Under the pieces are notes generated by a model that had not been told where the DNA came from, searched no databases, and saw only the letters and a list, made by a program, of their open reading frames with translations. DNA of 64,000 nt. Source: a virus. How positions within the stretch are numbered: the first letter of the stretch is position 1; each line of letters opens with the position of its first letter. Where the stretch lies: positions 1 to 64,000 of IMG/VR virus record IMGVR_UViG_3300009094_001034; one strand, 5' to 3'. Positions 1 through 64,000 of this stretch are shown here, in pieces. Position numbers and translations under genes: made by a program.

Positions 1-519
1 TCACGGCTCGTCGGCGTGCTGATCCTCGGCTTCGGCCTCGATCTTCGTCTCGGAGTAGAAGTTGACGTGCACGAGGTGCGCATTGTCCGCGGTGCTCACG
101 CCCATCCACCAGAAGTTGTCGGCCATCTGTTCCAGGTGCACGACGACATCGTTTCCGACAATCTCGTCGAGCGTTCCGTCCGCGTTGCGGCGGATCTCGA
201 TGGGACCGACGAAGATGCTCGGCAACAGCCCGCCCTCATCGCGCTTCGGCCCGATCAGCTCACCCGACGCCGGAATGTAGCGAAAGTAGGGTGCGATACG
301 CTCGACGTAGCGCACAACCGCCTGCAACTGGTCGACTGGGCATCCAGCCGCACCGATGGCCGCTGCTGCACGGCCGACGTTTCGGTTGTAATCGCCCAGA
401 TCCTCGGAAAGTCCGGCGGCGAACGTGATCAACTCTCGCAGCACCGCTGCGGCATCGACGTTAGTTTCTGCTTCGAGTTGGGCAAGGATCGCTCGTGCAT
501 TTTCGATTGTCGCGCTCAT
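1..519 (-). CDS. Hypothetical protein
   Basis: 172-aa ORF with GAGGAG SD; stop codon at window edge. Confidence 0.7.
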   Translation of the reverse strand: MSATIENARAILAQLEAETNVDAAAVLRELITFAAGLSEDLGDYNRNVGRAAAAIGAAGCPVDQLQAVVRYVERIAPYFRYIPASGELIGPKRDEGGLLPSIFVGPIEIRRNADGTLDEIVGNDVVVHLEQMADNFWWMGVSTADNAHLVHVNFYSETKIEAEAEDQHADEP

Positions 520-529
520 CGGCTGCTCC

Positions 530-745
530 TCACCAGGAACTCCGTTCGAAGGCGCTGGTCACTTCGCGAATGCTCTCTTCGACTTCGACCGTTTCCCCCT
601 TGGTGAACTTGAAGACGGTGCCGCGATCCGTCTCTTCGAAGGTCGTAAGCCACATCGCGCTGATCCCGACCCTGCGGCCAGTATCGGCTTTCGTAAGCAT
701 CACGAGCTGAACGTAAGGTCGATTGTCCGAACGTCTCGAAGCCAT
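530..745 (-). CDS. Small hypothetical protein (weak FlbD-like VEESIREV motif)
   Basis: 71-aa ORF; TACGGT -10-like box just upstream of ATG suggests a leaderless transcript. Confidence 0.6.
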   Translation of the reverse strand: MASRRSDNRPYVQLVMLTKADTGRRVGISAMWLTTFEETDRGTVFKFTKGETVEVEESIREVTSAFERSSW

Positions 746-837
746 GAGAGGACCGTACCTCGGTTTTCGCTAGGAATCGACTGCCGTTCGCAAATGGATG
801 AGGCGCATGCCCTCACCAGCGCACGCTCTCGCTCTCC

Positions 838-1164
838 TCAAGTCGCAACGACGAACTTGGGAAGGACCGCGATGATGTCGGACACCAGGTTCATCGCGAC
901 CGCTTCGGCATGCTTGCCTATTCGCACAAAACCGTGCACTTGGCGCATTCCTGACGCAAGGCTGCCGGAGACACTCGCCGCTGCGAAGAGCTCTTCGCCG
1001 TGATCCATCAGAAGCACGTGAACGAGTGGGTGAGATGGTGCGATCTCAGCGTGATAGCCGTTTTTCACGAGCTCGCCGATCAGTGCTTTGACAGCCTTAG
1101 AAGCCAGCGCGTGTGTCCCATCACGCGTTTCGATCCGGAGGTCAATGTGTTTCTTCGCCAGCAT
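838..1164 (-). CDS. Hypothetical protein
   Basis: Start moved to MLAKKH (ATG 1164), which has a GAGGAAGG SD. Confidence 0.6.
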   Translation of the reverse strand: MLAKKHIDLRIETRDGTHALASKAVKALIGELVKNGYHAEIAPSHPLVHVLLMDHGEELFAAASVSGSLASGMRQVHGFVRIGKHAEAVAMNLVSDIIAVLPKFVVAT

Positions 1165-1242
1165 AGGGGGCCTTCCTCGTGCTCTAGGATCGTCCGTCGA
1201 GGTACGCGTTGCGTCGGATTCTCGCAACGCGTTCAATCAAGT

Positions 1243-1315
1243 TCGGTGGCAAATCTCGATGGCTAGCGCGCGAGGCCCGTCGCCAAAATTTACTCGGTGG
1301 CAAAACGTTGGCAAA
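1243..1315. repeat. Putative integrase arm-type binding repeats
   Basis: TCGGTGGCAAA at 1243 and 1294, CGTTGGCAAA at 1306, 60-130 bp from the att core. Confidence 0.55.
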
Positions 1316-1332
1316 CCGCCCTTTTCAGCAAC

Positions 1333-1358
1333 AAAATAGCCCACCTTTCGGTGGGCTA
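1333..1358 (-). terminator. Rho-independent terminator downstream of the tRNA fragment
   Basis: TAGCCCACC-TTTC-GGTGGGCTA hairpin followed by a T-run on the minus strand. Confidence 0.75.
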
Positions 1359-1375
1359 AGTGATTTGGTTTCAAT

Positions 1376-1423
<48 letters not shown>

Positions 1424-1477
1424 CCGGATCAACCGGACACGCAAGCATTGAAACTGCTGGACTTGTTGGCCGACAGG

Positions 1478-2791
1478 CTACTTCTTCCCACCCGGTGCTA
1501 GGAGCTGTGCTAGGTCGAACGCCTCGCGACCCGTCGAGACCGCGGCCTCGATCGGCGCCATGAGGGCCGGGGTCTTCGAGGCGAGGAGGTGGGCGTACTG
1601 GGCGAGCGTGAACCGGGCGTCGGTGTGACCGAGTTGCCGCTGGAGCATCTTCAGTGCCCCTTCACCGCCGTTCGCGAGGATGTGGGAGGCGAAGGTGTGC
1701 CGGAAGTCGTGCCAGCGGATCGAGACGCCTTGGGCTTCGCGTGCGCGGGCGAACTCCCGGTGGAGATTGCGCGCTTCGAGGACGGGCATACGGGCGGCGC
1801 GCCTCGCCCTCACCTTCTCATCGGCGTCCTTCGGGACGGCCTGAGTGCGGGCGGGGAAGACGAAGTCGATCCACTGGTCTTCGAATGCCCGGTCGTAGCG
1901 CCGGCTGATCCTGCGGGGAAGACGGGCAGCGCCGTACTTCGCGACGACGTGGATGATGAACTCCTTCCGTGCCTCGTTCTCGGCAGCGCGCTGCGCCTTG
2001 TAGCGGAGCAGGAGTGCGGAGAGGGAGGGCGGGATGGCGACGGTGCGGACACCGGCTTCGGTCTTCGGCTCGACCTTCTGGCCCGTGGCCTGATCTCTCG
2101 ATGCGCGGATGGTGATGGTGTGCTCGGCGAGGTCGATGTCCACCCATTGGAGGGCGAGGACCTCGCCCTGGCGCATGCCGGTGAGGGCGCAGATCGCGGC
2201 GGCGATGTTGAAGGGTGTCCGCATCGCTCCGACGATCTTCAGCGCGTCCTTCAGGGGAGTGGCTTCGATCTGGGTCTTCGGGACCTTCGGGTACTCGAAG
2301 TAGACCGTCACGTCGCGCTTGAGCGTGCCGAACTTGAAGGCGTCTTCGAGCACGGAGATCATCGTCTGCAAGACGTTCTTGCGGTACTTCGGGGACTTCC
2401 CTGACGCGATCGAGGGCTCGATCTGGCGGAGCCGTTCGGGCGAGAAGTCGCGTAGCCGGATGTCGCCGATCTCGGCGTCCAGGGTCCGGAGGTGCGAGAG
2501 GACGGTACGTTCCATCGAGGGTTTGAACGGGCGCGTGCCCCGCATGCGGGTCTGTACCCAGTCGTTCGCGTACTCGCGGAAGGGAGTCTTGTCGGAGAGC
2601 TTCGGCTTGGGGCCGCGGGGATGCGCGATGAGTTCGGCCTTGCGGGTGGCCTGTGCGTCTTTCGCTTTGTTGATCGTGGGGTGCGTGCCGGCGGAGTAGG
2701 TCTTCCCTCCGACATTCACGGTGGCCTCGTAGGTCTTCCCGCGCTTCGAGATGCCGGGGGCGACTTTCGTGCGCTTGAAGCGGTTCTTCAT
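1478..2791 (-). CDS. int: Tyrosine recombinase/integrase
   Basis: TGMRQGE, PKT, HDFRHTFAS, LGH...Y motifs; start placed at MKNRF (ATG 2791, GGAGG SD). Confidence 0.95.
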   Translation of the reverse strand: MKNRFKRTKVAPGISKRGKTYEATVNVGGKTYSAGTHPTINKAKDAQATRKAELIAHPRGPKPKLSDKTPFREYANDWVQTRMRGTRPFKPSMERTVLSHLRTLDAEIGDIRLRDFSPERLRQIEPSIASGKSPKYRKNVLQTMISVLEDAFKFGTLKRDVTVYFEYPKVPKTQIEATPLKDALKIVGAMRTPFNIAAAICALTGMRQGEVLALQWVDIDLAEHTITIRASRDQATGQKVEPKTEAGVRTVAIPPSLSALLLRYKAQRAAENEARKEFIIHVVAKYGAARLPRRISRRYDRAFEDQWIDFVFPARTQAVPKDADEKVRARRAARMPVLEARNLHREFARAREAQGVSIRWHDFRHTFASHILANGGEGALKMLQRQLGHTDARFTLAQYAHLLASKTPALMAPIEAAVSTGREAFDLAQLLAPGGKK

Positions 2792-3057
2792 GACGCCTCC
2801 GTTTCGTAGAGCAGTTGTCCGTACAGGTCGTCCCCGAGCAGGGCGTACAGACGGTCGATGGTTGGATGCGATGGTTCGCGGAGAGCGAGATCCGCAAGGT
2901 GGGCGAGTGCCTCGGGTGCGGTGGTGACGCCCGTGATCGTGCAGCGGAGCGAACGACCGCCGTTGCGGATCGTCACGTTCTCGCCGCGGACGGTGATGGT
3001 GAGGCCCGCGAGGTGGATGAAGCGGGCTACGGACATCTTCTCGATTGCGTGTGGCAT
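2788..3057 (-). CDS. Hypothetical protein coupled to integrase
   Basis: GGAGG SD; ATGA overlap with int. Confidence 0.6.
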   Translation of the reverse strand: MPHAIEKMSVARFIHLAGLTITVRGENVTIRNGGRSLRCTITGVTTAPEALAHLADLALREPSHPTIDRLYALLGDDLYGQLLYETEAS

Positions 3058-3173
3058 ACGGCCTCCATGTCAAAGGGCGACCTCAGAGTGCGGAGGTGGG
3101 CGAGGAGCCGTCGAGAGGTCCAGGACCGCTGTACGGACCCCCTACGAGCTCCCAGCCCACCTTCCGGAGGCGA

Positions 3174-3650
3174 CTAGAAGTCGGTCGCCCCGAGCTCTTC
3201 GTCGTAGCGGTCGGTGTCGTAGATCTCCCGTTCCTCGCGGTCACGAATCCCGCGGACGAGGTCCCGCATGAACGTCTCGGTGTGGACGACGATCTGGCCG
3301 TTCCGGGTGCGAGTGGAATGCTCCTTCTTCGTGTTGGTGGCTTCGGCGCGCGATGCCCAGGCCTGCAGGCGCCCAGGGATCGCATCGAGCCAGGACAGCT
3401 CATAGAAGCGGGCCTTCGACATGTTGTTCGTGAAGGCGCGGATCATCACGCCGTCCATGAAGTCATCCCCTGGCCAGTCCATCGTGGTCGAGAGGAAGTT
3501 CACGGGCTTCACAATGAAGCGGTAGAAGGTTCCGTCGACGGCGAGGAGCTTGAGGCTCTCTCCGGCGCGGAGCGGGCGGCTGCGGTAGATGGGATATTCG
3601 ACAAGGGTGGGCGGTACACTTCCTGATGTGAATCCTCGATGTGTTGCCAT
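3174..3650 (-). CDS. Hypothetical protein
   Basis: Start MATHRGF with GGAGG SD; coding-like codon usage. Confidence 0.6.
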   Translation of the reverse strand: MATHRGFTSGSVPPTLVEYPIYRSRPLRAGESLKLLAVDGTFYRFIVKPVNFLSTTMDWPGDDFMDGVMIRAFTNNMSKARFYELSWLDAIPGRLQAWASRAEATNTKKEHSTRTRNGQIVVHTETFMRDLVRGIRDREEREIYDTDRYDEELGATDF

Positions 3651-3826
3651 GCGCTTCCTCCGTTCGCGTCGGGCTGCGACGCGTCGGGGCGCTGCACCTG
3701 CGAGGCGCGGGCTGAATGCCATGTGGAGCTACGTGGAAGGTGCTGCGAAGGAGCGCCAGACCACCTCCGCACTGCTATGGGCATAGGCGAGGAGCGTGTG
3801 TGGGTAACAAAACGCGGCATGGAGAT

Positions 3827-4861
3827 GTGACAAAAAGTGCGCGGCAACACGTCATCGACGGGTTCCGCGAAGGGAGCGCGGTCGCAGCGGCACTCCGAGC
3901 AGACGCCGAATTTCTCGCAACGAGGATTCCGAAGGCGCTCCGACCGCTCGCGGTGCAGTTCTACGAAGATACGGCTGCTGCGATAGAGGGAAAGCGGATC
4001 GAGAAGACGGCGCCCATTCGAAGTGGGGAGCTGTTCGAGATGTTCGCGGCACAGGTTCGGATGATCGAGCCAGATGAAGCCATGGTGCGCGTCGACGGCG
4101 AAACGCGAGAGGCGGTGCGCGAGAAAATTCACAAGCTCAAGCGCGCCATCATGGATTGCCCGTTCGAGGCTGGCATCCCGAACATTGCCCGAGCGTATTA
4201 CCGCTTTCGTTTTCCCGAGGTCGTTCGTGGAGCGTGGGACCAGACGTACAGCTTGTACCTCGACATCGATGTGGAGTTCACGAGTCCAGAGGCCCTCTTT
4301 CGACAGGCGCTCTTGTACGAACTGTTCAAGGCGACCCCGCGCGATTACCTTCAGCGCATTCTTCAGGCGGATATCCTTGGAGATACGAATGTGCAGTACG
4401 TGTACGATCTGGCGCGCGAGCCCTCATTCGAGAGGTTTGTAGAAGCGACCACACTCCTCGAGAAGATCGGGGCGGCTCTATGGACAGACGAACGCGCGAG
4501 TTTTCTCAATCGGGTGTTTCACTACGACGTCCAGCCGGCCACGCTAGCGCACGCGCTCTTTGCGTGGACGTACATCATTGCGGCGCACGACCTGCACGAT
4601 GACGCCACGGAGAGCGACGCTTGGCCGCTTGTGTCCACGGAGTGCTTGACGCTCACTGAGAAGCTCGTTGCACTCGACGTGCTGAAGGAGCATGGCAAGA
4701 GCGTACTCCGCCCGCTCTTTCGTGTCCTGATGGCCATGGGGCAGCGCGAATCCTATTCAGTAGACCTCGGGGAGGTCATCGAGGATGCAAAGGTGAAGGC
4801 TCGGGATGAAGCACGGGCCATGACGCGGAGCGATGTCGCGATTAAAGCGATGGAGCCGTGA
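3827..4861 (+). CDS. Hypothetical alpha-helical protein
   Basis: Long ORF; GTG start after GGAG; start uncertain. Confidence 0.65.
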   Translation: MTKSARQHVIDGFREGSAVAAALRADAEFLATRIPKALRPLAVQFYEDTAAAIEGKRIEKTAPIRSGELFEMFAAQVRMIEPDEAMVRVDGETREAVREKIHKLKRAIMDCPFEAGIPNIARAYYRFRFPEVVRGAWDQTYSLYLDIDVEFTSPEALFRQALLYELFKATPRDYLQRILQADILGDTNVQYVYDLAREPSFERFVEATTLLEKIGAALWTDERASFLNRVFHYDVQPATLAHALFAWTYIIAAHDLHDDATESDAWPLVSTECLTLTEKLVALDVLKEHGKSVLRPLFRVLMAMGQRESYSVDLGEVIEDAKVKARDEARAMTRSDVAIKAMEP

Positions 4862-5336
4862 GCGCCTTCGTGCAGAGAGCATCCGCGTAGCGGTTCTTCG
4901 ACCGCGGAACGTGCATCGGTGTGACGTGGAGCTTGCCCGGCGCCTTCGTGAGAAGGATGCGGCGCTTCCCATCCGATGCAGGGATCACGTCGTGCGACAC
5001 GAGCCGCGCGATCTGGTACTGGATGCGCGCAAGGTGGGGCGCCTGCGAGGTGCGGTTCTTCCCGCGCAGCCACTCAGTGACGAACTTCGAATCCCCCTTC
5101 AGCGTGACGTGTTCATAGCCGGCTCCCGCCGCCCACGTAAGCGCGTGGAGGCAACCTTGCAGTTCGGCCACCATGGACGTGGCCGGCGAGACGAGCCCCG
5201 ACCCCTCCATGATCTTCGCGTGCCCGTGGCCTATGGCGACCCATCCCCAGGCGCCGCGCGATGCTGGGTAGAGCGAGTGTGTCACGCCGATGTTGCCGCG
5301 CACGCCGCCATCGAAGTAGATCGTGCAGTCGTTCAT
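4842..5336 (-). CDS. Ribonuclease HI family protein
   Basis: YFDGG, AE, GDS, HVPR..N..AD catalytic motifs. Confidence 0.85.
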   Translation of the reverse strand: MNDCTIYFDGGVRGNIGVTHSLYPASRGAWGWVAIGHGHAKIMEGSGLVSPATSMVAELQGCLHALTWAAGAGYEHVTLKGDSKFVTEWLRGKNRTSQAPHLARIQYQIARLVSHDVIPASDGKRRILLTKAPGKLHVTPMHVPRSKNRYADALCTKALTAPSL

Positions 5337-5368: not shown

Positions 5369-6718
5369 TCACGCAATTAGCTGCAGCGGTGCATGCATCA
5401 CATCGATCGATCGGAACTCGGTCGTCGTGCGGTCGAAGCGAAGAAGGACCTTCCCCGTGGGACCGTTCCGATTCTTTTTCACGTGCAGTTCTACCTCGCC
5501 AGGTCGATCACTCCGGTCGTTGTAGTAGTCGTCGCGGTAGAGCATCAGGACAACATCGGCGTCCTGCTCGATGGAGCCCGACTCGCGCAGGTCGGAGAGG
5601 TTCGGGATCTTGTTGTCGCGCGATTCGACACCGCGTGAGAGCTGCGACAGGCAGAGTATCGGCACATCGAGCTCGCGTGCGAGTGTCTTGAGTCCGCGGC
5701 TCATTTCGGATACTTCCTGGACGCGGTTGTGCGGGTTGTTGCCGGCCATGAGCTGCAGGTAGTCGATGACGAGGAAGTCGAGACCGCGTTCGAGCTTCAT
5801 GCGACGTGCTCGGGTTCGCAGATCCGCGAGCGAGAGACCGCTCCGATCGAAGATCGTGATGGGGAGCGTGTGCAGCCGTTCAATCGCGTCGACGACGCGC
5901 TGGCGTTCGGCATCTGAGAGCTGACCAGACCGGAGCTTCCACCCATCGACCTTCGCGGCGGTGCTGAGGATGCGCCGCACGAGTTGCTGCTTGCTCATCT
6001 CGAGCGAGAAGACGCCGACGTGCTTTCCTCCCGTCGCGATGTTCTGCGCGACATTGATGGCCAGAGCTGTCTTTCCGATCGAGGGCCGCGCGGCGAGGAT
6101 AACGAGGTCGGAACGCTCGATGCCGGCGAGCATCGTGTCGAGATCATGGAAGCCGGTCGAGAGGAAGCGCGACGTGGTTCCGTCGTCATCGGCCGCAGCG
6201 GCGAGGCCGTCGTACGTCTCATTGAAGACATCCCCGAGTGTCTCCATACGAAGCCGCCGATCGCGCGTGCGCAACTCCAACAGGATCGCTTCCGCACGGC
6301 TGTTTACCTCTGCCGGATCTGCGTCGGGCTGAAACGCGAGCGCGGAGATATCGGTGCCGACCGTGATCAGGCGTCGCTGATACGCCTTGCTATGAACGAT
6401 CTCCGCGTACTTCTCCGCGTGTGAGGCGGTCGGGACGAACTCGGTCAATTCGGCGATGGCGCTCTTACCGCCGACGTCCACGATCTCCTTCCGTTCTTCG
6501 AGCAGATTGCAGACCGTGAGGAGGTCGACGGGTGTGTGGCGTCGGTGGAGATCCAGCATGGCCTGGTAGATCGTGCGATGGGCGACCACGTAGAAGTCAT
6601 CTCGGTCGAGGATCTCGGAGACCAACGTGATGCATTCCGGCTCCAGGAGAATGGATCCCAAGACACACTTTTCAGCTTCGAGATTTTGCGGTGGGATCAT
6701 TCCTTTAGGCGACGGCAT
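5369..6718 (-). CDS. dnaB: Replicative DNA helicase
   Basis: PPQNLEAE N-terminus, AARPSIGKT Walker A, IDYLQL, LSQLSR, SDLRESGSIEQDAD, KNRNG. Confidence 0.97.
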   Translation of the reverse strand: MPSPKGMIPPQNLEAEKCVLGSILLEPECITLVSEILDRDDFYVVAHRTIYQAMLDLHRRHTPVDLLTVCNLLEERKEIVDVGGKSAIAELTEFVPTASHAEKYAEIVHSKAYQRRLITVGTDISALAFQPDADPAEVNSRAEAILLELRTRDRRLRMETLGDVFNETYDGLAAAADDDGTTSRFLSTGFHDLDTMLAGIERSDLVILAARPSIGKTALAINVAQNIATGGKHVGVFSLEMSKQQLVRRILSTAAKVDGWKLRSGQLSDAERQRVVDAIERLHTLPITIFDRSGLSLADLRTRARRMKLERGLDFLVIDYLQLMAGNNPHNRVQEVSEMSRGLKTLARELDVPILCLSQLSRGVESRDNKIPNLSDLRESGSIEQDADVVLMLYRDDYYNDRSDRPGEVELHVKKNRNGPTGKVLLRFDRTTTEFRSIDVMHAPLQLIA

Positions 6719-7871
6719 CCGATGGGGTGGAAGTTGCTTTGAGAACGAGGGTGACGAACCTGCGGATCAAGCGCTCCTGTTCGGACCGCGGGGGTTCGGT
6801 GTCGAGTTGCTGAAACTCGCTCGTGTCAATCTGGAGACGTGTGCCCAGTTGCTCAATTCGACGCCACGCGAAGGACGGACCGGAGACGAGATCACCGGAG
6901 AGCTGCCGGTAGAGCGCATGGCCTTCAAAGAAGCGCGTCTCCTCGTCGAGCTTCGCAGGCAACGAGCCGGCGGCGCCCTTCGCCGCCCACTGGTATCCCG
7001 TCTTCGATTGGGCATCGAGGGCACTGCGCATCCAGGGAAGAAGGTTTCGTGGCGGAATGAGGCGGAGCGCCGACTCGCTCAGCGCGCGTAGAAAGTGCTC
7101 CTCGCCGTGTTGCTCTACGAGCGATCGGGTCACCGCGAGAATGTCTTGATTGATACTCCCCGGGCCCAACCGGTCCTCCACCTTGTCGAGAACAGCTCGC
7201 GGAATCGTCATGACGCTCGCGCCTGCGTCCTTCTTAGTAACCTTGTTCTCTCTTGTTCTTTCTTCCTCTATTACTACTGGCTCTTTCGTCGCTGAAAGGG
7301 CAACTGGTGCGGAATGGCTTGTAAAAGCCGAATCGAAGGGCGCTGGTGGCTTTAGGAAGCCATCGCCGCCAGTTGCCCTTTCGTAGTCTGAAAGTGCAAC
7401 TGGTCCCTTCGTGATCTCGAAGCGCCGCGGACGGAACGCACCGCTTTGCCTCCTCCGAATTTCGGATACTTCCACGAGGCCGAGCGACTCGAGGTTAACG
7501 AGCGCGCGAGCGACGGCTCGGTGGGATAGGCCGGTGTACTGGTTGATCGTCGTGAGGTGTGCCGTGAACCGCTTGTCGCCGGCGTCGTTGCACAGCATGA
7601 CGAGGACATCGTAGACAGCGAGAGCGGCCGGGATCTGCCGACCGGGGAGGGATTCAGCAATGAGCCGGACGCGCGCTTTGTCCTTCCAGTACCATCGGAC
7701 GCCATCTGTTCCCTTCACGCCCTTCATGCGGCCAGACGGATGTTCAACTTCGCGCGCTGTACGGATGGCTCGGGGGCATGTGTGAAGAAGGTTGTTGATT
7801 AGATGTGCATGCACAGTACCCCTGTGTCGGGACGAGTCAAGCACAAGCCATTGACCTTTTTGCCCTGACAT
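6705..7871 (-). CDS. Phage replication initiator with winged HTH (start may be ATG 7727)
   Basis: TINQYTGLSHRAVARALVNLESLGLV HTH; directly upstream of dnaB; internal iterons. Confidence 0.7.
   Translation of the reverse strand: MSGQKGQWLVLDSSRHRGTVHAHLINNLLHTCPRAIRTAREVEHPSGRMKGVKGTDGVRWYWKDKARVRLIAESLPGRQIPAALAVYDVLVMLCNDAGDKRFTAHLTTINQYTGLSHRAVARALVNLESLGLVEVSEIRRRQSGAFRPRRFEITKGPVALSDYERATGGDGFLKPPAPFDSAFTSHSAPVALSATKEPVVIEEERTRENKVTKKDAGASVMTIPRAVLDKVEDRLGPGSINQDILAVTRSLVEQHGEEHFLRALSESALRLIPPRNLLPWMRSALDAQSKTGYQWAAKGAAGSLPAKLDEETRFFEGHALYRQLSGDLVSGPSFAWRRIEQLGTRLQIDTSEFQQLDTEPPRSEQERLIRRFVTLVLKATSTPSDAVA
7230..7404. promoter_or_regulatory. Putative replication origin (iterons plus AT-rich tract) inside the initiator gene
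   Basis: CTGAAAG(G/T)GCAACTGGT at 7292 and 7388, inverted copy at 7369-7382, AT/pyrimidine-rich tract 7230-7290. Confidence 0.6.
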
Positions 7872-8035
7872 GTAGGCTGTGAATGCATCCGTGAAGAAGG
7901 TGCTGCGAGGAGCCTTGGGGCACGTCCCAGGGCCTCTTGCATGCGACCCAACAACCCGGAGGTCTGAGGCGCGTGTGCACAGCGCCCCAGAGTCCTCGCG
8001 GGAGTGGGTGCGGATTCCACCACGAATCCCTTTGC

Positions 8036-8356
8036 TTAGCGGAGAAGAACGTACCCGAAGAGAAGCGCGATCGAGACGGCTGTTGCCAGAATGCCGGGAG
8101 TGAAGACGCGATCCCGGAGCGAGCGGAACGACGAGCGGACCCGCGAACGCTTCTTCCCGGTTTCAGCCGGGACGTGCGCGGGGCGACGAACGACGATCCC
8201 ACAGGTCGGAACCGAGCAGCAGAGCTGCACTTCAATCGAACCACCGATGAGGGTGGTTTCGACATTCAGCCAAGCCGTCCGATCGTGCAGCTTGCATGAA
8301 GGACATTTCTCATCGGTCGGAGCGCGCTTGCGCACGCCTGTAATTTCGCCAGTCAT
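8036..8356 (-). CDS. Zn-finger protein with C-terminal TM helix
   Basis: CPSC...CSVPTC; hydrophobic C-terminus. Confidence 0.5.
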   Translation of the reverse strand: MTGEITGVRKRAPTDEKCPSCKLHDRTAWLNVETTLIGGSIEVQLCCSVPTCGIVVRRPAHVPAETGKKRSRVRSSFRSLRDRVFTPGILATAVSIALLFGYVLLR

Positions 8357-9312: not shown

Positions 9313-9355
9313 GAATGTTACGCAACACGGTGCATGGTCGGAATGTCACGCAACA
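9313..9355. promoter_or_regulatory. Direct-repeat putative operator in divergent intergenic region
   Basis: GAATGTTACGCAACA (9313) and GAATGTCACGCAACA (9341). Confidence 0.45.
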
Positions 9356-9371
9356 TACCCCCCCAATCCTC

Positions 9372-10029: not shown

Positions 10030-10078
10030 CGAAGAGGCCCGGTGCAAACGCACGGGCTTCTTCAAGTAGGCGGGAACA

Positions 10079-56152: not shown

Positions 56153-56165
56153 CCGACAGGGACCA

Positions 56166-56200
56166 ACGGAAGGCCCGGGTTCTCCCCGGGCCTTTTCGTT
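56166..56200 (+). terminator. Internal hairpin/terminator between the two ATPase genes
   Basis: GGAAGGCCCGGG-TTCTC-CCCGGGCCTTTT. Confidence 0.6.
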
Positions 56201-56214
56201 CATGAGGAGAACGA

Positions 56215-57678
56215 TTGAAGAATGGAGAGATCATCGCGCTGGCGACCTTCATCGACGCCATCCGTGACGCCGGGTACCGGGGCACGCCCGCAGCGATCGC
56301 CGAGTTGGTGGACAACGCCATGGAGGCCGGAGCGACGAACATCACCATCGAACTCTGGACGACGGACGACGGAACGTCGGTGTACGTAGCCGATAACGGC
56401 TGCGGCATGCCGCCCGAGACGATCCGCCTCGCCCTGCAGTTCGGCGGCAGCACCCGCTTCGATTCCCGCGCGGGGCTCGGGCGGTACGGTATGGGGCTCC
56501 CAGGAAGTTCGATCAGTCAGGCATTGCGTGTCGACGTGTATTCGTGGACGACGCGCGGTGCGGCCTGGTGGACCTTTCTGGATGTCCCGATGATCCGCGG
56601 CGGCGCCCTCGTAGCCGTGCCGAAACCGCGGCGTGCCACGCCACCCGTGGGACCGCGAGAGACGACGAGCGGCACCATCGTCCAGTGGACACACTGCGAT
56701 CGCATCCCGAGCATCACCCCACGCCTCCTGCGGGAGATCCACGAGACCATCGGCCGGCTGTTTCGGACGTTCCTGTGGGCCGGAGCCACGATCACCGTGA
56801 ACGGCGTCGAGGTGCAGCCCGTTGATCCGCTTTTCCTGCGGCCGTCAGCGGCGCCGGTCGGAGCACGCCAGTACGGCCCGGAGTTGATCTTCCCCATCAC
56901 CCTCCGAGACGGGAACAGGAAGCGCCACGCCACCGTGACGGCGCAGTTCGTCGAACTGCCGATCGCGGAGTGGGAAGGGCTTTCGAATGCGGAGAAACGG
57001 AAGTATCGGATCTCCAAGTCTCCCGGCATCTCCATCCTCCGCGCCGACCGGGAGATCGACACCGGCTGGTTCTTCATGGGATCGAAGCGGAAGGAGAACT
57101 ACGACGATTGGTGGCGTGCGGAAGTGCGGTTCAGCCCCGAGCTCGACACGTTCTTCGGCGTGACGCACACGAAGCAAGGGATCCATCCGACCGCCGAGAT
57201 CGAGGCCATCTTGTCGCCGCAGATGGAGCGGATCGCACATGACCTGAACGCCCGCGTCCGGAAGACGTTTCTCCGCGTTCGGGCGACGGAGCCGAATACC
57301 CGCGCGATCGACTACGCCTCTGCTCGGGACCACCGGTTGGAGCCGCCGAAGCGTGCGGTTCGCCGCGGCGCAATGAAGGCGAAAACACGAGGATTGACCT
57401 ACTCCATCGAACACGCGAAACTCCCCGGCCCGCGGTTCTTCGCCGTGCGGATCTCAGACGGCCGGGTCAGAATCATCCTCAACGAGGATCACCCGTTCTA
57501 CACGGTCGTTTACGGGGACAATCGGAAGCGCGATGCGACACAGGATCGTCTCGCGCAGTTGGAAATGATGCTCCTTGCAGCAGCGCGCGCGGAAGTCCAG
57601 TGTGTGCGAAAAGAGAAGGTGGAGGCGAGGGCGTTTCTCCAACAGTGGAGCGATGCTCTCCGGACGTTTTTGACCTAG
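56215..57678 (+). CDS. MORC-type GHKL ATPase (HATPase_c_3), paralog 2
   Basis: GY...ELVDNA, DNGCGM, GRYGMGL, GTIV; TTG start with GAGGAG SD. Confidence 0.88.
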   Translation: MKNGEIIALATFIDAIRDAGYRGTPAAIAELVDNAMEAGATNITIELWTTDDGTSVYVADNGCGMPPETIRLALQFGGSTRFDSRAGLGRYGMGLPGSSISQALRVDVYSWTTRGAAWWTFLDVPMIRGGALVAVPKPRRATPPVGPRETTSGTIVQWTHCDRIPSITPRLLREIHETIGRLFRTFLWAGATITVNGVEVQPVDPLFLRPSAAPVGARQYGPELIFPITLRDGNRKRHATVTAQFVELPIAEWEGLSNAEKRKYRISKSPGISILRADREIDTGWFFMGSKRKENYDDWWRAEVRFSPELDTFFGVTHTKQGIHPTAEIEAILSPQMERIAHDLNARVRKTFLRVRATEPNTRAIDYASARDHRLEPPKRAVRRGAMKAKTRGLTYSIEHAKLPGPRFFAVRISDGRVRIILNEDHPFYTVVYGDNRKRDATQDRLAQLEMMLLAAARAEVQCVRKEKVEARAFLQQWSDALRTFLT

Positions 57679-59655
57679 ATGGCGGATGAACGAGAGTGGT
57701 TCCCTTTTCAGCCCGAGCTCGGGCAGCACGTCGAGGAGTTCACGACGTTCGCTACGCGCTTGGCTGAAGCCACAGACCTGAAACCGCTGCGACTCGAGGT
57801 GCTCCGGGAACTCGACCGGGCGAAGAACGGCGCGCTCCCGCTCCACATGGTCCAGAGCATTGCCCTCGACCTCGCCGATCAGGGCTGGGGATTCAGCGTC
57901 GATCGAGACGGGATCGCATGCTCCGCTCCATCTGTCGCGGATGAATGCTCGGCGAGCGCAAAGACACGCATCCGTCAGGGCCACGCTTTCGAGCGCTCCG
58001 CCCACCTGCGCGAACCCTCCGTCCAAGACTTCATTGCGGCGATGGAACAGCGAAGGCTCACGGCGAACGGCTGGCATTCGATCTACTCGCTCATGCGCGA
58101 TGGCCGGGAACTCGGCGCGAAGTTGGCTGCGGCCGCGACGCTTGAAGGCGCCGCGCGCGAGAAAGCGCTTGCAGCAGCGATTGATCCCTACATCCAGTTC
58201 GTTGATCCGGATGTCGTCGACGAGCACACGGGACTCCTCCTCACGGACATCTGGCGCTACTTCCGGATGACGTGGGTGAACATGCACAAGTCCGTTCCTG
58301 GCCGCACGATGATGATCCTCATCCGCGACCGAGCCGCGGCACAACATCCGGTCATCGGGATCGCGGCGCTCGCGAGCGCCGTGGCGCAGTTGGACCTGCG
58401 AGACTCGTGGATCGGATGGAATGCTGCGGCATTCCTCGACCACCTGGACAACGAAGGGAACGCAGCAGATGCGAAGTGGCTCCACGCATCCATCGACAAT
58501 CTCCTCGACGCGATCTACCTGAAGGATCTCCTCAAGGAGAAGATCATCAGCAAGGCGCTCATCGCGACGCCTACCGAGGACCTGATCCGAAACCTCCGGG
58601 ATGCGGCAGCGGAAGCGAAGAAGAAGCACCACCAGAACGCCGATGCCGCGGCGATGAAGCGCAAGGACGTCGCTTGGGAGGAGAAAGCGCTCCTGCCACT
58701 CTTTCGCGCGAAGCGCTGCGAAGCGCTGGCAAAACTCCTCGGTATCCGACTCGTGTTTCAGAAGGTCGGTTTCAGTACCGGCTCTAAGAAAGCGCTCGAC
58801 CTCGCACTCTCGCAGCCCTCAGCGCGGACGGCGATCGGCCAACTCGTGCGGGCAGTGAAGTCGGAGCACGTCGGTATCGACATGATGGACATTACAGTCT
58901 GCGGCGCGGTGGCGCCGTACAACCGCGTGCTCGGCGGGAAACTCGTGTGCACGCTCCTCACGAGCCCCGAAGTCGTGCAGGCGTACAAGCGACGGTACGA
59001 TGGCCAGGAAAGCATCATCGCGTCGTCCATCAAGGGCGCTCCGGTACGCCGAACGCCACGGCTCGTGCTGCTCTCCACGACGAGTCTCTATGGCCGCGGC
59101 TCAAGCCAGTACAACCGCGTGAAGATCCCGGCGGGCGTGGCGGGCGGAGCGGACGGGGATGTCGTCGAGTACCGACATCTCGGCCACAGTAAGGGCTTCG
59201 GGACCTTCCATTTCAGCGCCGAGACCGTGCGCGTCATCGATACTCTTCTCGCCAGACGCCAGGACGGAAAGCGGGTGAACTCCATCTTCGGAGAGGGCGT
59301 GAATCCGCGGATGCGGAAGATCCGCGAAGCGCTCGAATCCGTGCGGTTGCCGAGCGACGCCATCTTGAATCACGGCGTTCCGCGCGTTGTGTACGGCATC
59401 GCGCTCGCGTCGAATTTCCGCGACGTGCTCCTCGGTCGGCAAGACAAGCCGCGCTACGTGATCCCGCAAACGAAGCCTGCGGAGCGGTCGGCCCGGCTCG
59501 CGGCCTTCTGGCGAACGCGATGGCTATCCAATCGCATCAATGATCCTGCGGTGCTCTCGGACATTGCGGAGCACACGCTGTCGTACCCCGTGACGCATGG
59601 AGCTCGCGTCGTCGGTCCGCCTATTGAAGGAGATGAGAACGAGACCCTATGGTGA
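57679..59655 (+). CDS. DruA/DUF4338-like protein (extended, 658 aa)
   Basis: WRYFR.TW...PGR, RD.WIGW, CGAVAPYN.VLGGKLV, TTSLYG..SSQYNR, G.S.GFG.FH. Confidence 0.8.
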   Translation: MADEREWFPFQPELGQHVEEFTTFATRLAEATDLKPLRLEVLRELDRAKNGALPLHMVQSIALDLADQGWGFSVDRDGIACSAPSVADECSASAKTRIRQGHAFERSAHLREPSVQDFIAAMEQRRLTANGWHSIYSLMRDGRELGAKLAAAATLEGAAREKALAAAIDPYIQFVDPDVVDEHTGLLLTDIWRYFRMTWVNMHKSVPGRTMMILIRDRAAAQHPVIGIAALASAVAQLDLRDSWIGWNAAAFLDHLDNEGNAADAKWLHASIDNLLDAIYLKDLLKEKIISKALIATPTEDLIRNLRDAAAEAKKKHHQNADAAAMKRKDVAWEEKALLPLFRAKRCEALAKLLGIRLVFQKVGFSTGSKKALDLALSQPSARTAIGQLVRAVKSEHVGIDMMDITVCGAVAPYNRVLGGKLVCTLLTSPEVVQAYKRRYDGQESIIASSIKGAPVRRTPRLVLLSTTSLYGRGSSQYNRVKIPAGVAGGADGDVVEYRHLGHSKGFGTFHFSAETVRVIDTLLARRQDGKRVNSIFGEGVNPRMRKIREALESVRLPSDAILNHGVPRVVYGIALASNFRDVLLGRQDKPRYVIPQTKPAERSARLAAFWRTRWLSNRINDPAVLSDIAEHTLSYPVTHGARVVGPPIEGDENETLW

Positions 59656-60146
59656 ACGTCCTTGAAGATCTGTACCACGTGAGCGCGACGCCGCGTGAGT
59701 TGAGTTGGCAACCGTCCCTGAAATCGAAGACGTGGGATGACGCGACGAAAGAGGAGATCGAGACGGCCCTCGATGCGCAGCGCCCAGCGCAGGCTCCGTC
59801 GCGGCGCAAGAGCTACTTCGCGTTCCGAACGATCGACGAGTGCGTCTACTACGCCGACTCGGAGGGCATCGGGCCGGAACGCCACTTCTACGTGGTGAAA
59901 CTGACGGGAGCTGTACGGGCGCCAATCAAGATCATCGCGGTGCCCCCTGCATTGTTGCCGTACCGCGACGCGATCTACCGTCACTACTGGAACGCCGACG
60001 ACGGGTGGAAGGTCTACGAACTTTTTGGCGAGCAGATGATCGTGCGGGACGAATACAAGGGCACGATCCCTGACGCTGGCCATGTGCTTGCGAAGTTGGT
60101 TGATGACCGGAACCGCCTGATGCAACTGGCTGCAACGTGGCGATGA
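59649..60146 (+). CDS. DUF2441-like (ADP-ribosyltransferase-fold) protein
   Basis: YHV...RP..APSR...YFAF...YW...YE pattern. Confidence 0.55.
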   Translation: MVNVLEDLYHVSATPRELSWQPSLKSKTWDDATKEEIETALDAQRPAQAPSRRKSYFAFRTIDECVYYADSEGIGPERHFYVVKLTGAVRAPIKIIAVPPALLPYRDAIYRHYWNADDGWKVYELFGEQMIVRDEYKGTIPDAGHVLAKLVDDRNRLMQLAATWR

Positions 60147-60598
60147 CCGATGAAGTGCTGGAGGTGTTGCGTCAGGCGAAAGTGCTTGCGCAGCGCTATC
60201 GTGCGCTGACGGGAAAGCCGCTCGGGATCACCGGAGAGGTGGCCGAGTACGAAGCCGCTCGAATCCTGGGAGTGCGACTTACGCCGGCGCGGCAATCGGG
60301 ACACGACGCCGTCGAGATCGTTGATGGCCGCGAACGCACGCTCCAAATCAAGGGGCGATGCATCCTTCCGGGGGCGAAGAAGAGCCAACAGACGGGTTCC
60401 ATCGATATCGAGAAGGCGTGGGATGCGGTACTTCTCGTGCTCGTCGACGAAAGCTTCGACGCGTACATCATCTATGAAGCGGAGCGCGACGCCGTTCTGA
60501 AGGCGATCCTTGAACCGGGCTCGAAGGGGAGAAACGAGCGGTGGGCGCTGTCGGTGAGCAAGTTCAAGGGCATTGGACGCGAGCGCTGGAAGCGCTGA
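60143..60598 (+). CDS. PD-(D/E)XK-like nuclease (DUF6998-like)
   Basis: GEVAE...GHDA...QIKGR; ATGA coupling. Confidence 0.65.
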   Translation: MTDEVLEVLRQAKVLAQRYRALTGKPLGITGEVAEYEAARILGVRLTPARQSGHDAVEIVDGRERTLQIKGRCILPGAKKSQQTGSIDIEKAWDAVLLVLVDESFDAYIIYEAERDAVLKAILEPGSKGRNERWALSVSKFKGIGRERWKR

Positions 60599-60614
60599 CG
60601 GTTATTCTTCTGCC

Positions 60615-61421
60615 ATGAACGATGTGCCGCAGCCGACCGCGTACGAGGAACGTTTCATTGCGTTCGTGGATGTGTTGGGTTTCGGCGCGCTGGTGTCCGA
60701 GTCGGGAAAGCCAGGTGCGGATGCGGCGGGGACAATCAAGCGAATCTGTGATGCGATTCTGTGGTCGCGGGAAGAACTCGAAGATCTGTTGAGTGGTTCT
60801 TCCGATTTCGTCTTTACGCAGTTCTCAGACTCCTTCGTGATCAGCACGGAGGCGTCGAATGAGACCCAACGATTCGGCCTCAGCCAGTTTGCCTTCGCAG
60901 TGCGCGCGATCATCGATTGTTTCCTCGGGTCTGACTTGGTTCTGCGCGGTGGTGTTACGCGCGGTCCGCTGATTCATACGCGTGAACTTCTCTTCGGCCC
61001 TGCGATGAACCGCGCGTATGAGTTGGAGTCTCGCGTGGCGAATGTTCCTCGGATCATCTTCGACCCGGACATCCCTGCCGTCCGTGATGCGCTGATGACG
61101 GACTACATGCCGGACTACGTGGCGAGAGACACGGACGGGTTCTTTTACGTCGACTACTTCTCCCCTACGAAGAAGTTCTTTCTCGTTCCGAGCTGGCTGT
61201 ACTCCATTCAGCGAATCATCGAAGCAATGCCGGTATCGGCGGCGCTCGCGGCAAAACGCGAATGGATGGTTGCGAAGTTCAATGCGCGCCTCGAGGGTTT
61301 CTCATTCGAAGCGTTCAAGGCACGGCTCGATGACTACGTCGACGACACGGACGCGATCAACGCCGTCATCGAAGACTACGAGAAACTCCTTGAGCCGGCG
61401 CGGCGTCTGCGACGGTTGTAG
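60615..61421 (+). CDS. Class III nucleotidyl cyclase-like protein
   Basis: FVDVLGF, FSDS, LRGGVT.G, FGPAMN.AYELES, PRI. Confidence 0.7.
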   Translation: MNDVPQPTAYEERFIAFVDVLGFGALVSESGKPGADAAGTIKRICDAILWSREELEDLLSGSSDFVFTQFSDSFVISTEASNETQRFGLSQFAFAVRAIIDCFLGSDLVLRGGVTRGPLIHTRELLFGPAMNRAYELESRVANVPRIIFDPDIPAVRDALMTDYMPDYVARDTDGFFYVDYFSPTKKFFLVPSWLYSIQRIIEAMPVSAALAAKREWMVAKFNARLEGFSFEAFKARLDDYVDDTDAINAVIEDYEKLLEPARRLRRL

Positions 61422-61469
61422 GAAGTTCGAAGGCGGTGACGCCCGACCATCACCGCCTCGACGAACGAC

Positions 61470-61811
61470 TTAGACCGTCGCGGTCTGGAGCAGGGCGAAC
61501 ACGTTCTGCCCGTGGCGGTTCTTCCTGTTCGCTGCGAGGCGTACGTCCAGCGCTTTCTCCTCCCTCTCCGTCAGGGGCGTGACGAGGATGCGCGGCGCGA
61601 CGGCGTACGAACGTGCGATCTGCAAGCACGTCGGGAGGCGGGGCGTCGTCTTGCCGGCCTCCCACTGCGAAACGGAGAACGGGCTGACGCCGAGCTCGCG
61701 TGCCGCATCCGTGATCGTGCGATCCGACATCACGCGGAGATGCTTGAGACGACGCCCGAACTGCTTGGGGGTGGTGGATACCTCGGACTCTGCAGTCGAC
61801 TGTACTGCCAT
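61470..61811 (-). CDS. XRE-family HTH regulator (repressor candidate)
   Basis: FGRRLKHLR...AARELGVS..SVSQWEAG...P. Confidence 0.85.
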   Translation of the reverse strand: MAVQSTAESEVSTTPKQFGRRLKHLRVMSDRTITDAARELGVSPFSVSQWEAGKTTPRLPTCLQIARSYAVAPRILVTPLTEREEKALDVRLAANRKNRHGQNVFALLQTATV

Positions 61812-61831
61812 GAGAATTGGGGGTAGGAAGT

Positions 61832-61862
61832 TGATGCGCAAACACTAAGTGTTTGCGCATCA
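61832..61862. promoter_or_regulatory. Perfect inverted repeat, putative operator
   Basis: TGATGCGCAAACAC-TAA-GTGTTTGCGCATCA between divergent HTH genes. Confidence 0.7.
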
Positions 61863-62011
61863 TTCTGCAACGAAGGTGTCAAGCGAACTTCGTCTCCATG
61901 GGTGCACTCTCCCCCGTGTAGAAGCCGCCTAACTCTCGTCGCAGCGTGCTACGATTTCTCGCGACACGACCACTCCGGCGTGACCCATATGCGTCATGAA
62001 GGAGATGGTCG

Positions 62012-62383
62012 ATGGCAGTCACCAGACGCGGCTTCCTGCAGGGGATCGCTGCCGCAACCGCGAGCACGGCCCTCGTCGTGCGGTCGAACACCCTCCCAGC
62101 CCCACCTGTCGAGGTGCTCGAGGCGGAGATCCTCGGCGAGGAAGAGGTCGGATTCCTCCGGCCACGGGGCGCGACGAAACTGGAGTCCTACCTACGATCG
62201 CGCGGCATCAAGCCGGCGCACCTCGCCCGAGAGTGCGGCTACAGCCGTCAGCATCTTCTCCGGGTTCGCATGGGGAAGATGGAGCCGACGCGGCGCTGCA
62301 TCGCGGCCATCGTCGCGGCATGCCGACGCATTGCACGGGAGCGCGTGCAGCCCTCGGACCTCTTTGAGTTGGAGCGTCCCTGA
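62012..62383 (+). CDS. HTH protein with twin-arginine-like N-terminus
   Basis: TRRGFL start; LARECGYSRQHLLRVRMG..EP HTH. Confidence 0.7.
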   Translation: MAVTRRGFLQGIAAATASTALVVRSNTLPAPPVEVLEAEILGEEEVGFLRPRGATKLESYLRSRGIKPAHLARECGYSRQHLLRVRMGKMEPTRRCIAAIVAACRRIARERVQPSDLFELERP

Positions 62384-62610
62384 TGACGTTTCCGACGAAC
62401 GTCTGCGAGTGCTCTCATCGCAAGGGGAAGCACTGGTTCACGACGACGAGCAAGAAGGCGCCGTGTCTAGAATGCGCGTGCACCTCCTTTACGCCGGAAC
62501 CCGTGTGCCGCTGCGGGCATGGCAAGAAGTCCCATGCGAAAGGCCCGTGTCATCACAAGTACCTCTGCGGATGCACACAGTTCCGCGACAGGACGGCAGC
62601 CCATGCGTAA
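62383..62610 (+). CDS. Cys/His-rich repeat protein
   Basis: C.C.H....H...C..C.C..F twice. Confidence 0.6.
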   Translation: MTFPTNVCECSHRKGKHWFTTTSKKAPCLECACTSFTPEPVCRCGHGKKSHAKGPCHHKYLCGCTQFRDRTAAHA

Positions 62611-62980
62611 GAGCACGACGGTGATGCCGCTCGCCGGCGTGTTCCGTCAGGGGCAGCCGCTGCTCTCCACTGAGGATCAGGTGTTCCTCCCCGCTGCGGC
62701 CGTGGAAGCGGACGAACTCGTGTATCGCGTCGCCGATCACTCGCTATCGGAGTTGGAAATCCAGCCAGGCGATCTGTTGATCGCTGAATTCAGGTCCAAG
62801 GCGCAGACAGGCGAACTCGTTCTCGTGCGGCTGGGAGAGCAGTGTTTCATCGGGCGCTGGTGGTCAAAACATGCAAGACGCGACGTGACTGGACCGGATG
62901 GCCAGACGGTGATCGCACGCGGGGCAGAAGTCCTCGCGGTCATCAATCTGATTATTCGGGGGTCATATGACACGCAGTGA
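62603..62980 (+). CDS. LexA/S24-like domain protein
   Basis: PLAG...RVADHSL...IQPGDLLI...GELV. Confidence 0.65.
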   Translation: MRKSTTVMPLAGVFRQGQPLLSTEDQVFLPAAAVEADELVYRVADHSLSELEIQPGDLLIAEFRSKAQTGELVLVRLGEQCFIGRWWSKHARRDVTGPDGQTVIARGAEVLAVINLIIRGSYDTQ

Positions 62981-63455
62981 ACGTATCCGGCACATATTTC
63001 TGAAACAGCGGCGCTTTACACGGGAACACGCATCAGACGCGCTTGGGCGCTCGCTTCGCTGGGTGGAAGCCAATCGATTCTCCAGAGAGAACGGCGGGTG
63101 GGTGTCCTGGCAGGAGATGGTGCTCCTCGCGTACGCGCTCTGGACCCGCGTGCAAATCGACAAGGCGCTCGGGGACGACGCCGCGACGGTCTTTCCGCCC
63201 CTCGCGCAGCTGACGACGCTCACCGTACGCGTCCCGATCTACAAGGTCGTCGGGCTTCGACGCGACGCCGAGCGGCGAAAGATGGACATGGATGAAATCA
63301 TCAACGACGCTCTCGAAGTCGATTGGTGTGAGGCCCAGAGTATCGATAAGAGAGCTCCGGGATTCCTTGCGGCGTGGCACTTCCCGTATCCCTTGTCCAG
63401 ATCGGATGGCTACCGCGAGGCGGCTGACCGACGTGGCGGATGTCCCGATGACTAG
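62967..63455 (+). CDS. Hypothetical DNA-binding-like protein
   Basis: Coupled 162-aa ORF. Confidence 0.6.
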   Translation: MTRSERIRHIFLKQRRFTREHASDALGRSLRWVEANRFSRENGGWVSWQEMVLLAYALWTRVQIDKALGDDAATVFPPLAQLTTLTVRVPIYKVVGLRRDAERRKMDMDEIINDALEVDWCEAQSIDKRAPGFLAAWHFPYPLSRSDGYREAADRRGGCPDD

Positions 63456-64000
63456 TGACTTCGACTGGCCCGGCGTTCCGTACAGCCAGTTCCTCCGACA
63501 GCAGCTCGCGGAAGCGACCGAGTACGAGTACCTCAACCCGCGCTTGGATCGGCGGTACGACCCCGTCGTGATCGGCGGGAACGCGATGCACCCGGTGCTG
63601 CAACGTGGCGACGTGATCCTCATCGACACGGGCAACACGGAGCCGGAGGACGGCCGGACCGTGGCCGTGCGTGTCGGGGGTGGTCGCACCATCCTTGGCT
63701 ACTGGCGAGATCGTGGTGGAAAGCCCGTGCTCGAGCAAGAGCGAACGGACGCGGTGATCGACCTCGCACAGTATCAAGGCTGGTCGATCTACGGCGTCGT
63801 CACGAAGATCATCGGCCGCGGCATCCCGCCGCATGCGCCACCACCCGATGTAGCATTAGAAACGGAGGCACCACGCATGGATGTCACGCCAGGACAGGCG
63901 CAGTGGATTATTGAACGGCTGATCGCGGAGCGGAAGGTTTCGAGGGCGGACGTCGACAGGTACGTGGGCGACATGGGGCGCGAGATCGAGGACATTGAAG
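63448..64000 (+). CDS. S24/LexA-like protein, truncated by window end
   Basis: Manual translation: GGNAMHPVLQRGDVILID...DG..VAV...YGVV; open to 64000. Confidence 0.65.
   Translation, partial: MTSDFDWPGVPYSQFLRQQLAEATEYEYLNPRLDRRYDPVVIGGNAMHPVLQRGDVILIDTGNTEPEDGRTVAVRVGGGRTILGYWRDRGGKPVLEQERTDAVIDLAQYQGWSIYGVVTKIIGRGIPPHAPPPDVALETEAPRMDVTPGQAQWIIERLIAERKVSRADVDRYVGDMGREIEDIE

Follow-up and report, generated by a model that had tools for sequence, protein, structure and literature searches.

Does a phage genome mark all its translation starts in one way, or can it use two kinds of signal side by side, and what would then determine which gene carries which? The question is raised by a stretch of 64,000 nucleotides from the virus record IMGVR_UViG_3300009094_001034 (hereafter, the window), in which the initial annotation had noticed blocks of genes led by Shine-Dalgarno (SD) sequences interleaved with blocks of genes that have G-poor leaders. 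It forms the first 64 kb of one 97,173-bp provirus record in IMG/VR (G000), with a GC content of 62% and a CheckV completeness of 80%. On balance, we favor, with moderate confidence, the interpretation that this is one temperate siphophage lineage with two translation-start signals sorted by gene class; the mechanism of initiation and the timing of the two classes in lytic growth and lysogeny are what we infer from the sequence.

Genes were called with a home-made codon log-odds model trained on long open reading frames with a high GC content at third codon positions (GC3), which yielded 142 genes; coding potential was the sole criterion for the starts, so that their placement could not be biased by any leader motif. 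The leader statistics refer to 141 genes across the whole 97-kb record, the leader being defined as the last 20 nucleotides (nt) before the start, and 1084 internal in-frame ATG and GTG codons of the same genes served as the control. Leaders with no more than two G precede 27.7% of the genes compared to 1.8% of the control codons, and leaders without any G precede 9.2% compared to 0.1%. Anti-SD duplexes of −8 kcal/mol or stronger are likewise in excess (14.9% of the genes versus 5.0% of the control), with the purine cores GGAGG, AGGAG and AAGGAGA that are complementary to the CCUCC of 16S rRNA. Under simple and arbitrary thresholds, 22 genes of the record are SD-led (class S), 59 are G-poor without pairing (class C) and 60 belong to neither class; the corresponding numbers for the window are 14, 42 and 28.

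The two classes are not scattered along the genome. Class S genes form 22 runs where 38.2 ± 3.1 are expected, a value reached in none of 20,000 shuffles. They are also more often preceded directly by a strand switch (10 of 22, compared to 7 of 59 class C genes; Fisher p 0.002), and their median upstream gap is 132 nt versus 16 nt for class C. The SD-less leaders quoted in the initial annotation (groEL 21511, capsid, scaffold and gene 19113) are all present as written, and so are the SD sites claimed for the integrase, the gene pair 10079/10466, genes 25900, 26789 and 27244, and the MORC genes 54356 and 56215. The SD binding energy computed for each gene confirms that the two initiation styles are real and occur in blocks. 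In the SD-led genes, the spacing between the SD core and the start has a mode of 7 nt and is mostly 5–8 nt, with 27 of 36 values within 5–10 nt. The capsid leader contains one G in 20 nt and the scaffold leader none, and the mean anti-SD duplex is about 0 kcal/mol in two of the class C blocks (G and I in our labelling).

In class C leaders, G is depleted from about −19 to −1 and most deeply from −14 to −12, within the −20 to −1 range over which the class definition itself selects for low G. For example, the 30 nt before the exonuclease start at 17631 (17601–17630, plus strand) are devoid of G. When a gene ends 0–25 nt before such a leader, its stop codon is TAA in 33 of 37 cases, compared to 29–34% genome-wide, so that the avoidance of G extends to the upstream stop and TAA appears to be imposed. 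These leaders contain CTAAC (z 8) and TCACC (z 5) more often than their base composition predicts, and runs of C are avoided. The predicted minimum free energy of folding from −30 to +20 is −6.0 kcal/mol for class C, −10.6 for class S, −12.0 for the other genes and −13.5 for internal ATG codons (p 6e-44 for class C versus the internal-ATG control). Because 18 class C leaders are located at least 80 nt from the previous gene, coupling to upstream translation alone does not account for them.

Some of these leaders lie behind a promoter-like element, RGCGTA(N3)T, compatible with a TAnnnT −10 hexamer and found 10 times in G000 and its relative G001 (described below); 8 of the 10 lead into class C leaders. 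One such element is followed by the G-poor leader of gene 19113 (19067–19112, plus strand). The element is situated 36–48 nt before the start and, if it acts as a promoter, as we infer, would yield a short G-free 5′ untranslated region of roughly 20–30 nt; most class C genes are internal cistrons. A scan for the sigma-70 consensus over 9001–29000 and 44001–64000 produced 0 sites compared to 2.6–3.0 per 20 kb in shuffled sequences and is uninformative for promoter assignment; evidently, the phage promoters are of another form than this consensus.

The tracts might not be translation signals at all. They could be binding sites of Rho (rut-like) or of other RNA-binding proteins, or they could reflect avoidance of a G-dependent repressor or nuclease such as CsrA, which is directed at GGA. 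Rho prefers C-rich, G-poor, unstructured RNA, and the tracts are indeed located between cistrons and behind the promoter-like elements. However, they are short (20–30 nt) and end exactly at start codons, the depletion of G is strongest at positions −19 to −1, and the SD-led genes, which are transcribed in the same cell, lack such tracts. We give this explanation very little credence.

The two styles are shared with a distant relative. A portal profile retrieved G001, an IMG/VR provirus of 90.6 kb that matches part of a 526-kb soil contig and has a portal with 60% identity; scans of genome contigs and viral contigs with the single portal protein found no match. The two genomes are colinear between 4.8–96.4 kb of G000 and 2.3–90.5 kb of G001, and G001 has both styles, with 57 class C and 14 class S leaders among its 127 genes. 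The leader class is kept across 46 orthologous pairs with 30–90% protein identity, with significant correlations between the partners in both anti-SD energy (Spearman rho 0.55, p 6e-5) and G count (rho 0.48, p 8e-4). The genes that are SD-led in both phages are those for SSB1, the 10466 protein, the primase, a 1155-amino acid (aa) methylase-helicase and RadC; the primase has AGGAGG in both despite only 34% protein identity. The capsid, scaffold and tail genes are G-poor in both. Because a distant relative keeps the split, it is an old, organized feature rather than the product of a recent chimera or an assembly error.

Phage morons and other accessory cassettes, a concept of Hendrix and Juhala, provide a comparison for the SD-led class. 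The MORC/DruA operon resembles them in being counter-oriented, in carrying its own expression signals and in having no orthologue in G001; the OLD, GroES/EL and SSB2 genes and the integrase block of G000 are also without orthologues there. The class as a whole differs from morons in that 9 of the 22 class S genes have orthologues in G001 (compared to 26 of 59 class C genes), its composition is that of the backbone, and it includes integrase, primase and ssb genes. Absence from relatives and deviant composition, the marks of recent cassettes, thus characterize only subsets of the class, namely the MORC/DruA operon and the integrase block.

The initial annotation had proposed that the two styles record a host shift across phyla, with Patescibacteria-like, SD-less modules joined to Acidobacteriota-like modules, and the affinities that it suggested for two of the proteins are borne out. 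For DnaB, the best match in Patescibacteria has 49% identity and 426 bits, with most of 149 genomes at 380–420 bits, compared to at most 353 bits and 43–45% in Acidobacteriota; only these two phyla were compared, so that "nearer to Patescibacteria" may mean merely "not Acidobacteriota-like". For SSB2 (the ssb gene at 26789), the two best Acidobacteriota matches (184 and 167 bits) share 74% and 66% of residues within the aligned core and 60–62% over the whole protein, whereas Patescibacteria reach at most 131 bits and 56%. Both of these matches are single, SD-led ssb genes with no other phage homologue nearby, and we took them as chromosomal. The SD-led class furthermore contains Pfam families that are common on plasmids and integrative and conjugative elements (ICEs), namely RadC, DUF932, the RepB/PriCT primase and SSB.

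Most of the other evidence speaks against such a chimera. GroEL, which had also been considered Patescibacteria-like, has no such affinity and is equidistant from many phyla, with identities of 57–58% to Bacillota, 54–56% to Actinomycetota, 52–55% to Patescibacteria, 53–54% to Gemmatimonadota and 52–53% to Acidobacteriota. Copies in related phages have 85, 78 and 60% identity, and GroEL is old in this phage group. The portal profile has matches in 5 of 401 Acidobacteriota genomes (three at E 1e-58 to 1e-64), weak matches only in 3 of 401 Gemmatimonadota and 1 of 251 Armatimonadota genomes, and none in 301 Patescibacteria genomes. The composition of the two classes is alike: GC3 is 0.80 in class S and 0.78 in class C (p 0.10), and the codon-usage and tetranucleotide distances between the classes fall inside the label permutations (p 0.12 and 0.17). 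The leaders of the sampled Patescibacteria genome, a member of Paceibacterota, are SD-poor but A/T-rich rather than C-rich. None of our conclusions draws on the unpublished genomes G430 and G455. Finally, as described above, both styles are conserved in G001, where class S genes are shared as often as class C genes. Thus, the affinities of DnaB and SSB2 stand, whereas GroEL, the portal, the composition and the conservation in G001 do not fit a cross-phylum origin, and mixed SD usage alone is weak evidence for a host shift. We regard a chimera of this kind as very improbable.

Misassembly does not account for the mosaic either. Logan contigs from two rhizosphere samples (91.8 kb in X2 and 21.4 plus 70.5 kb in X1) cover 9001–29000 at an even depth of 18–21x and cross the SD islands at 10 kb and 25–27 kb, which excludes misassembled junctions there. 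The interval 46001–56000 is complete in two rhizosphere samples, each from a different study; no RNA sample was listed among those containing this DNA. The record itself may derive from these samples, in which case what is independent is the assembler and not the DNA. The junctions common to G000 and G001 are backed by synteny. An identical portal is present on four contigs, the longest of 751 kb, which, for a 97-kb provirus of this GC content, also weighs against the cross-phylum chimera; a portal with 89% identity is on record as well, on a 287-kb contig. Other relatives, known as proteins only, have portals with 82, 63, 62, 61 and 56% identity.

Alternatively, a phage may long ago have merged with a plasmid- or ICE-like set of genes, which would fit the gene content of the SD-led class. 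The label "plasmid- or ICE-like" was given on Pfam families only, and a plasmid collection contained no close relatives of the 608-aa gene at 89677–91503, the methylase-helicase or the primase.

Could the phage simply mimic its host? Under this explanation, the host itself has few SD sites and many C/A-rich leaders, and the phage copies the mix irrespective of gene class. Published data make such a host plausible: the share of SD-led genes is 10% in Spartobacteria, 22% in Gemmatimonadetes, 25% in Fimbriimonadia and 32–61% in Acidobacteriota classes, with some classes having only 10–45% SD genes (PMC10783764), and C/A signals before non-SD genes, together with low structure around starts, have been described in several phyla (Nakagawa et al. 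2017, PMC5397173). In GC-rich Caulobacter, which has few SD sites, accessibility is the main determinant of start sites (bioRxiv 10.1101/2022.10.10.510831). Among the genomes that we sampled, class C leaders make up 13% in the Acidobacteriota genome G462, from which the best SSB2 match comes. Nevertheless, no sampled genome reaches the level of the phages. In samples of 80–234 kb from genomes of candidate phyla, leaders with no more than two G account for 5.6% and 3.1% in two Acidobacteriota, 1% in another, about 4% in Gemmatimonadales and 0% in Chthonomonadaceae, compared to 27.7% in G000 and 29.9% in G001. The distant Acidobacteriota prophages with portal relatives have purine-rich or SD leaders, and neither the sharp sorting into blocks nor the gene-by-gene conservation is expected from mimicry alone. 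We consider mimicry as the whole explanation unlikely. Acidobacteriota may be the host phylum, which we treat as a lead and not as a finding; the lead is weakened by the absence of portal relatives from all 191 genomes of the class to which G462 belongs.

Under the interpretation that we favor, in which one lineage sorts two start signals by gene class, the G-poor class comprises the genes for replication and recombination, nucleotide metabolism, chaperonin, lysis and the virion. Their leaders, about 20–30 nt of C, A and U with almost no G, can neither pair with the CCUCC anti-SD nor fold, and leave the start codon exposed. Initiation would then depend on accessibility, via standby or S1-type binding, and re-initiation by the terminating ribosome also appears likely where a TAA stop is located about 11–14 nt upstream. 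The SD-led class includes the integrase block, both ssb genes, the primase, RadC, DUF932, the unannotated 608-aa gene of the right-end module, the MORC/DruA defense operon and the helix-turn-helix (HTH) regulators. These genes, with canonical SD sequences at optimal spacing, are mostly located in their own, often counter-oriented, transcription units; hence, host ribosomes would translate them without modification, either in the lysogen or during establishment. A more ambitious version is a programmed translational partition, whereby genes for lysogeny, establishment and defense use the host SD route and every lytic gene has a G-free leader with no need for anti-SD pairing, such that lytic mRNAs would still be translated, or even preferred, when SD-dependent initiation is shut down or saturated by the phage or by an abortive response of the host. 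This version we judge to be decidedly unlikely.

Several observations weigh against the favored interpretation. Altogether, 43% of the genes belong to neither class, although half of these have overlapping starts, with coding sequence in the upstream 20 nt. The start sites rest on a home-made caller. The comparison genomes come from candidate phyla, so that the comparison with host usage is indirect. DnaB and SSB2 differ in their phylum affinity. Finally, primase and ssb are genes of replication and not obviously of lysogeny, and accordingly the lytic-versus-lysogenic label is approximate.

How does this arrangement compare with known systems? Ribosomal protein S1 binds to unstructured, CA-rich enhancers; CAA-rich leaders of this kind work in E. 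coli, and by analogy the G-free C/A leaders of the phage could support SD-independent initiation. Those enhancers are model or viral-plant leaders tested in E. coli, whereas the usage in the phage is natural and genome-wide and is known from sequence. The phage leaders also resemble the bacterial leaders of non-SD initiation (PMC5397173; bioRxiv 10.1101/2022.10.10.510831) in the lack of anti-SD complementarity, the enrichment of C and A before the start and the low predicted structure. Unlike in these bacteria, the exclusion of G in the phage is far stricter, with up to 30 nt free of G in DNA of 62% GC and TAA imposed upstream, and the style is confined to certain gene blocks, alongside strong SD sites elsewhere in the genome. 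In Bacteroidetes phages that encode ribosomal protein bS21, this protein has been proposed to favor phage transcripts late in infection (Chen et al. 2022, PMC9723584). The present phage differs in that its GC content is high, its host is probably not a member of Bacteroidota and its virion genes are SD-less; a search of the 97-kb record with PF01165 at E values of up to 1 retrieved nothing, so that, without a phage bS21, the case is distinct.

It is usually assumed that phage genomes copy the single start style of the host; this lineage has long kept two, sorted by function, with an exclusion of G that is strict enough to dictate the neighboring stop codon. The partition makes it possible to test whether translation can be specific to a gene class in a temperate phage that has no ribosomal protein of its own and, should it be programmed, would separate the two life styles of the phage at the ribosome independently of bS21. 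Provided that the G-free leaders function as their sequences suggest, they would be compact, structure-free, SD-independent start signals for GC-rich bacteria, useful as parts, and would be relevant to gene callers, which misplace starts when they expect an SD.

The gene content was established with Pfam and PHROGs profiles. These identified a tyrosine integrase, an RNase H-like protein, DnaB, two SSBs, two CHAP proteins, a dNMP-kinase-like protein, an exonuclease, GroES/GroEL, a RuvC-like resolvase, an NUMOD3/Vsr nuclease, a RepB/PriCT primase, an M15 peptidase, an OLD nuclease, a complete siphovirus-type virion module, the MORC/MORC/DruA operon, and HTH and S24 regulators; a methylase-SNF2 helicase, RadC and DUF932 are encoded beyond the window. 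No Rfam family was found in the window, and no repeats of at least 15 nt that could mark att sites are shared between the two ends of the record.

The left end of the window (1–5336) is an SD-led block of 8 genes, 7 of class S and 1 of class C, with a mean anti-SD duplex of −8.0 kcal/mol. It contains the integrase (1478–2791, −), the RNase H-like gene (4842–5336, −), both identified with Pfam, and the genes 1–519 (−), 838–1164 (−), 2788–3057 (−), 3174–3650 (−) and 3800–4861 (+). Only five homologues of the integrase were found; their lengths of 437–440 aa support the 437-aa form with a start at 2791. The adjoining G-poor, SD-less block (5369–8607, −), with none of 3 genes in class S and a mean of 3.0 G per 20 nt, consists of DnaB (5369–6718, −; Pfam), a replication-initiator-like gene (6705–7727, −) and the gene 8353–8607 (−), and phrog_270 was matched within it. 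The SD-led pair at 10079–10975 (−) follows, with SSB1 (10079–10456) and an unknown gene (10466–10975), both of class S; their SD sites, AAGGAGA and AGGAGG, form duplexes of −9.2 and −11.4 kcal/mol. A divergent intergenic region (10976–11127) is located ahead of this pair.

The G-poor, SD-less block 11128–24854 (+) comprises 25 genes, none of class S and 17 of class C, with a mean of 2.7 G per 20 nt. It encodes small open reading frames, the two CHAP proteins, the dNMP kinase-like protein (16270), the exonuclease (17631), gene 19113, GroES (21044), GroEL (21511) and the RuvC-like protein (23097). The phage GroEL (21511–23100) lacks the Gly-Met tail of cellular GroEL; the copy with 60% identity is on a 66,649-bp contig, and a portal relative is likewise on a 66,649-bp contig. 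The block is interrupted by a non-coding stretch of 785 nt (20259–21043), which has no Rfam family at the gathering threshold and contains a tRNA-Tyr (20669–20755) with an unusual T arm. Pairing of the leaders with this stretch was considered and rejected, the mean duplex being −18.8 kcal/mol, compared to −17.8 ± 1.0 in shuffles and −18.0 ± 1.5 in other windows.

The SD-led block 24851–27495 (+) encodes a nuclease, the primase, SSB2 and a probable small protein. The nuclease, an NUMOD3/Vsr-type protein fused to DUF4406 (Pfam), starts at 24851 or 24962 (+) and has the SD AAAGGAGA. A CxxC...CxxxC motif is specified by the 37 codons (24851–24961) that separate the two candidate starts, GTG at 24851 and TTG at 24962, and the GTG is preceded by AAAGGAGA and overlaps the preceding stop by 4 nt; the longer, SD-led form is probably the real one. 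The primase (25900–26778, +; Pfam), SSB2 (26789–27178, +) and the probable small gene (27244–27495, +) have the SD sequences AGGAGG, AGGAGA and AAGGAGAAG, respectively. Further downstream is the G-poor lysis block (27769–29113, −), with none of 3 genes in class S and with the M15 peptidase (28128–28793; Pfam).

The virion block (31051–53945, −), assigned with PHROGs and Pfam, is G-poor and SD-less, with 26 genes, none of class S and 19 of class C. It includes tail genes, a 1005-aa gene (36434–39451, −) that by position only would be the tape measure, the capsid (46594–47499, −), scaffold (47532–48323, −), protease (48440–49114, −), portal (50230–51714, −) and TerL (51772–53340, −). When the TerL frame is read from 53340, its match to phrog_38 (E 2e-93) extends from residue 14 onward, which places the TerL start well upstream of the first ATG, GTG or TTG at 52989.

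The counter-oriented MORC/MORC/DruA operon (54356–61421, +; Pfam HATPase_c_3 twice and DruA) begins with an SD island (54356–57678), in which the MORC genes 54356 and 56215 have the SD sequences AGGAGA and GAGGAGA; the later genes mostly start at or over the preceding stop codon. The SD-led HTH regulator (62012–62383, +; Pfam), with AAGGAGA at −9.5 kcal/mol, is divergent from another HTH gene (61470–61841, −). At the right end of the record (88–97 kb), 6 of 14 genes are of class S and 1 is of class C.

Three divergent intergenic regions beyond the window (67542–67665, 71652–71803 and 95010–95159 of the record) have an SD-led gene on the plus strand and a G-poor-led gene on the minus strand. 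All three share a TTGAC box, along with a palindrome of the GCATTGCA type, and may thereby have an operator in common. In both phages, a DnaA-box-like TTATCCACA or TGTGGATAA (82342–82350 in G000; 36548, 74047 and 84177 in G001) is located about 60–70 nt upstream of the RGCGTA element. Two very strong hairpins, at 27703–27732 (13-bp stem) and at 44868–44907 (18-bp stem), the latter within the virion block and directly ahead of a G-poor leader, resemble terminators or processing sites.

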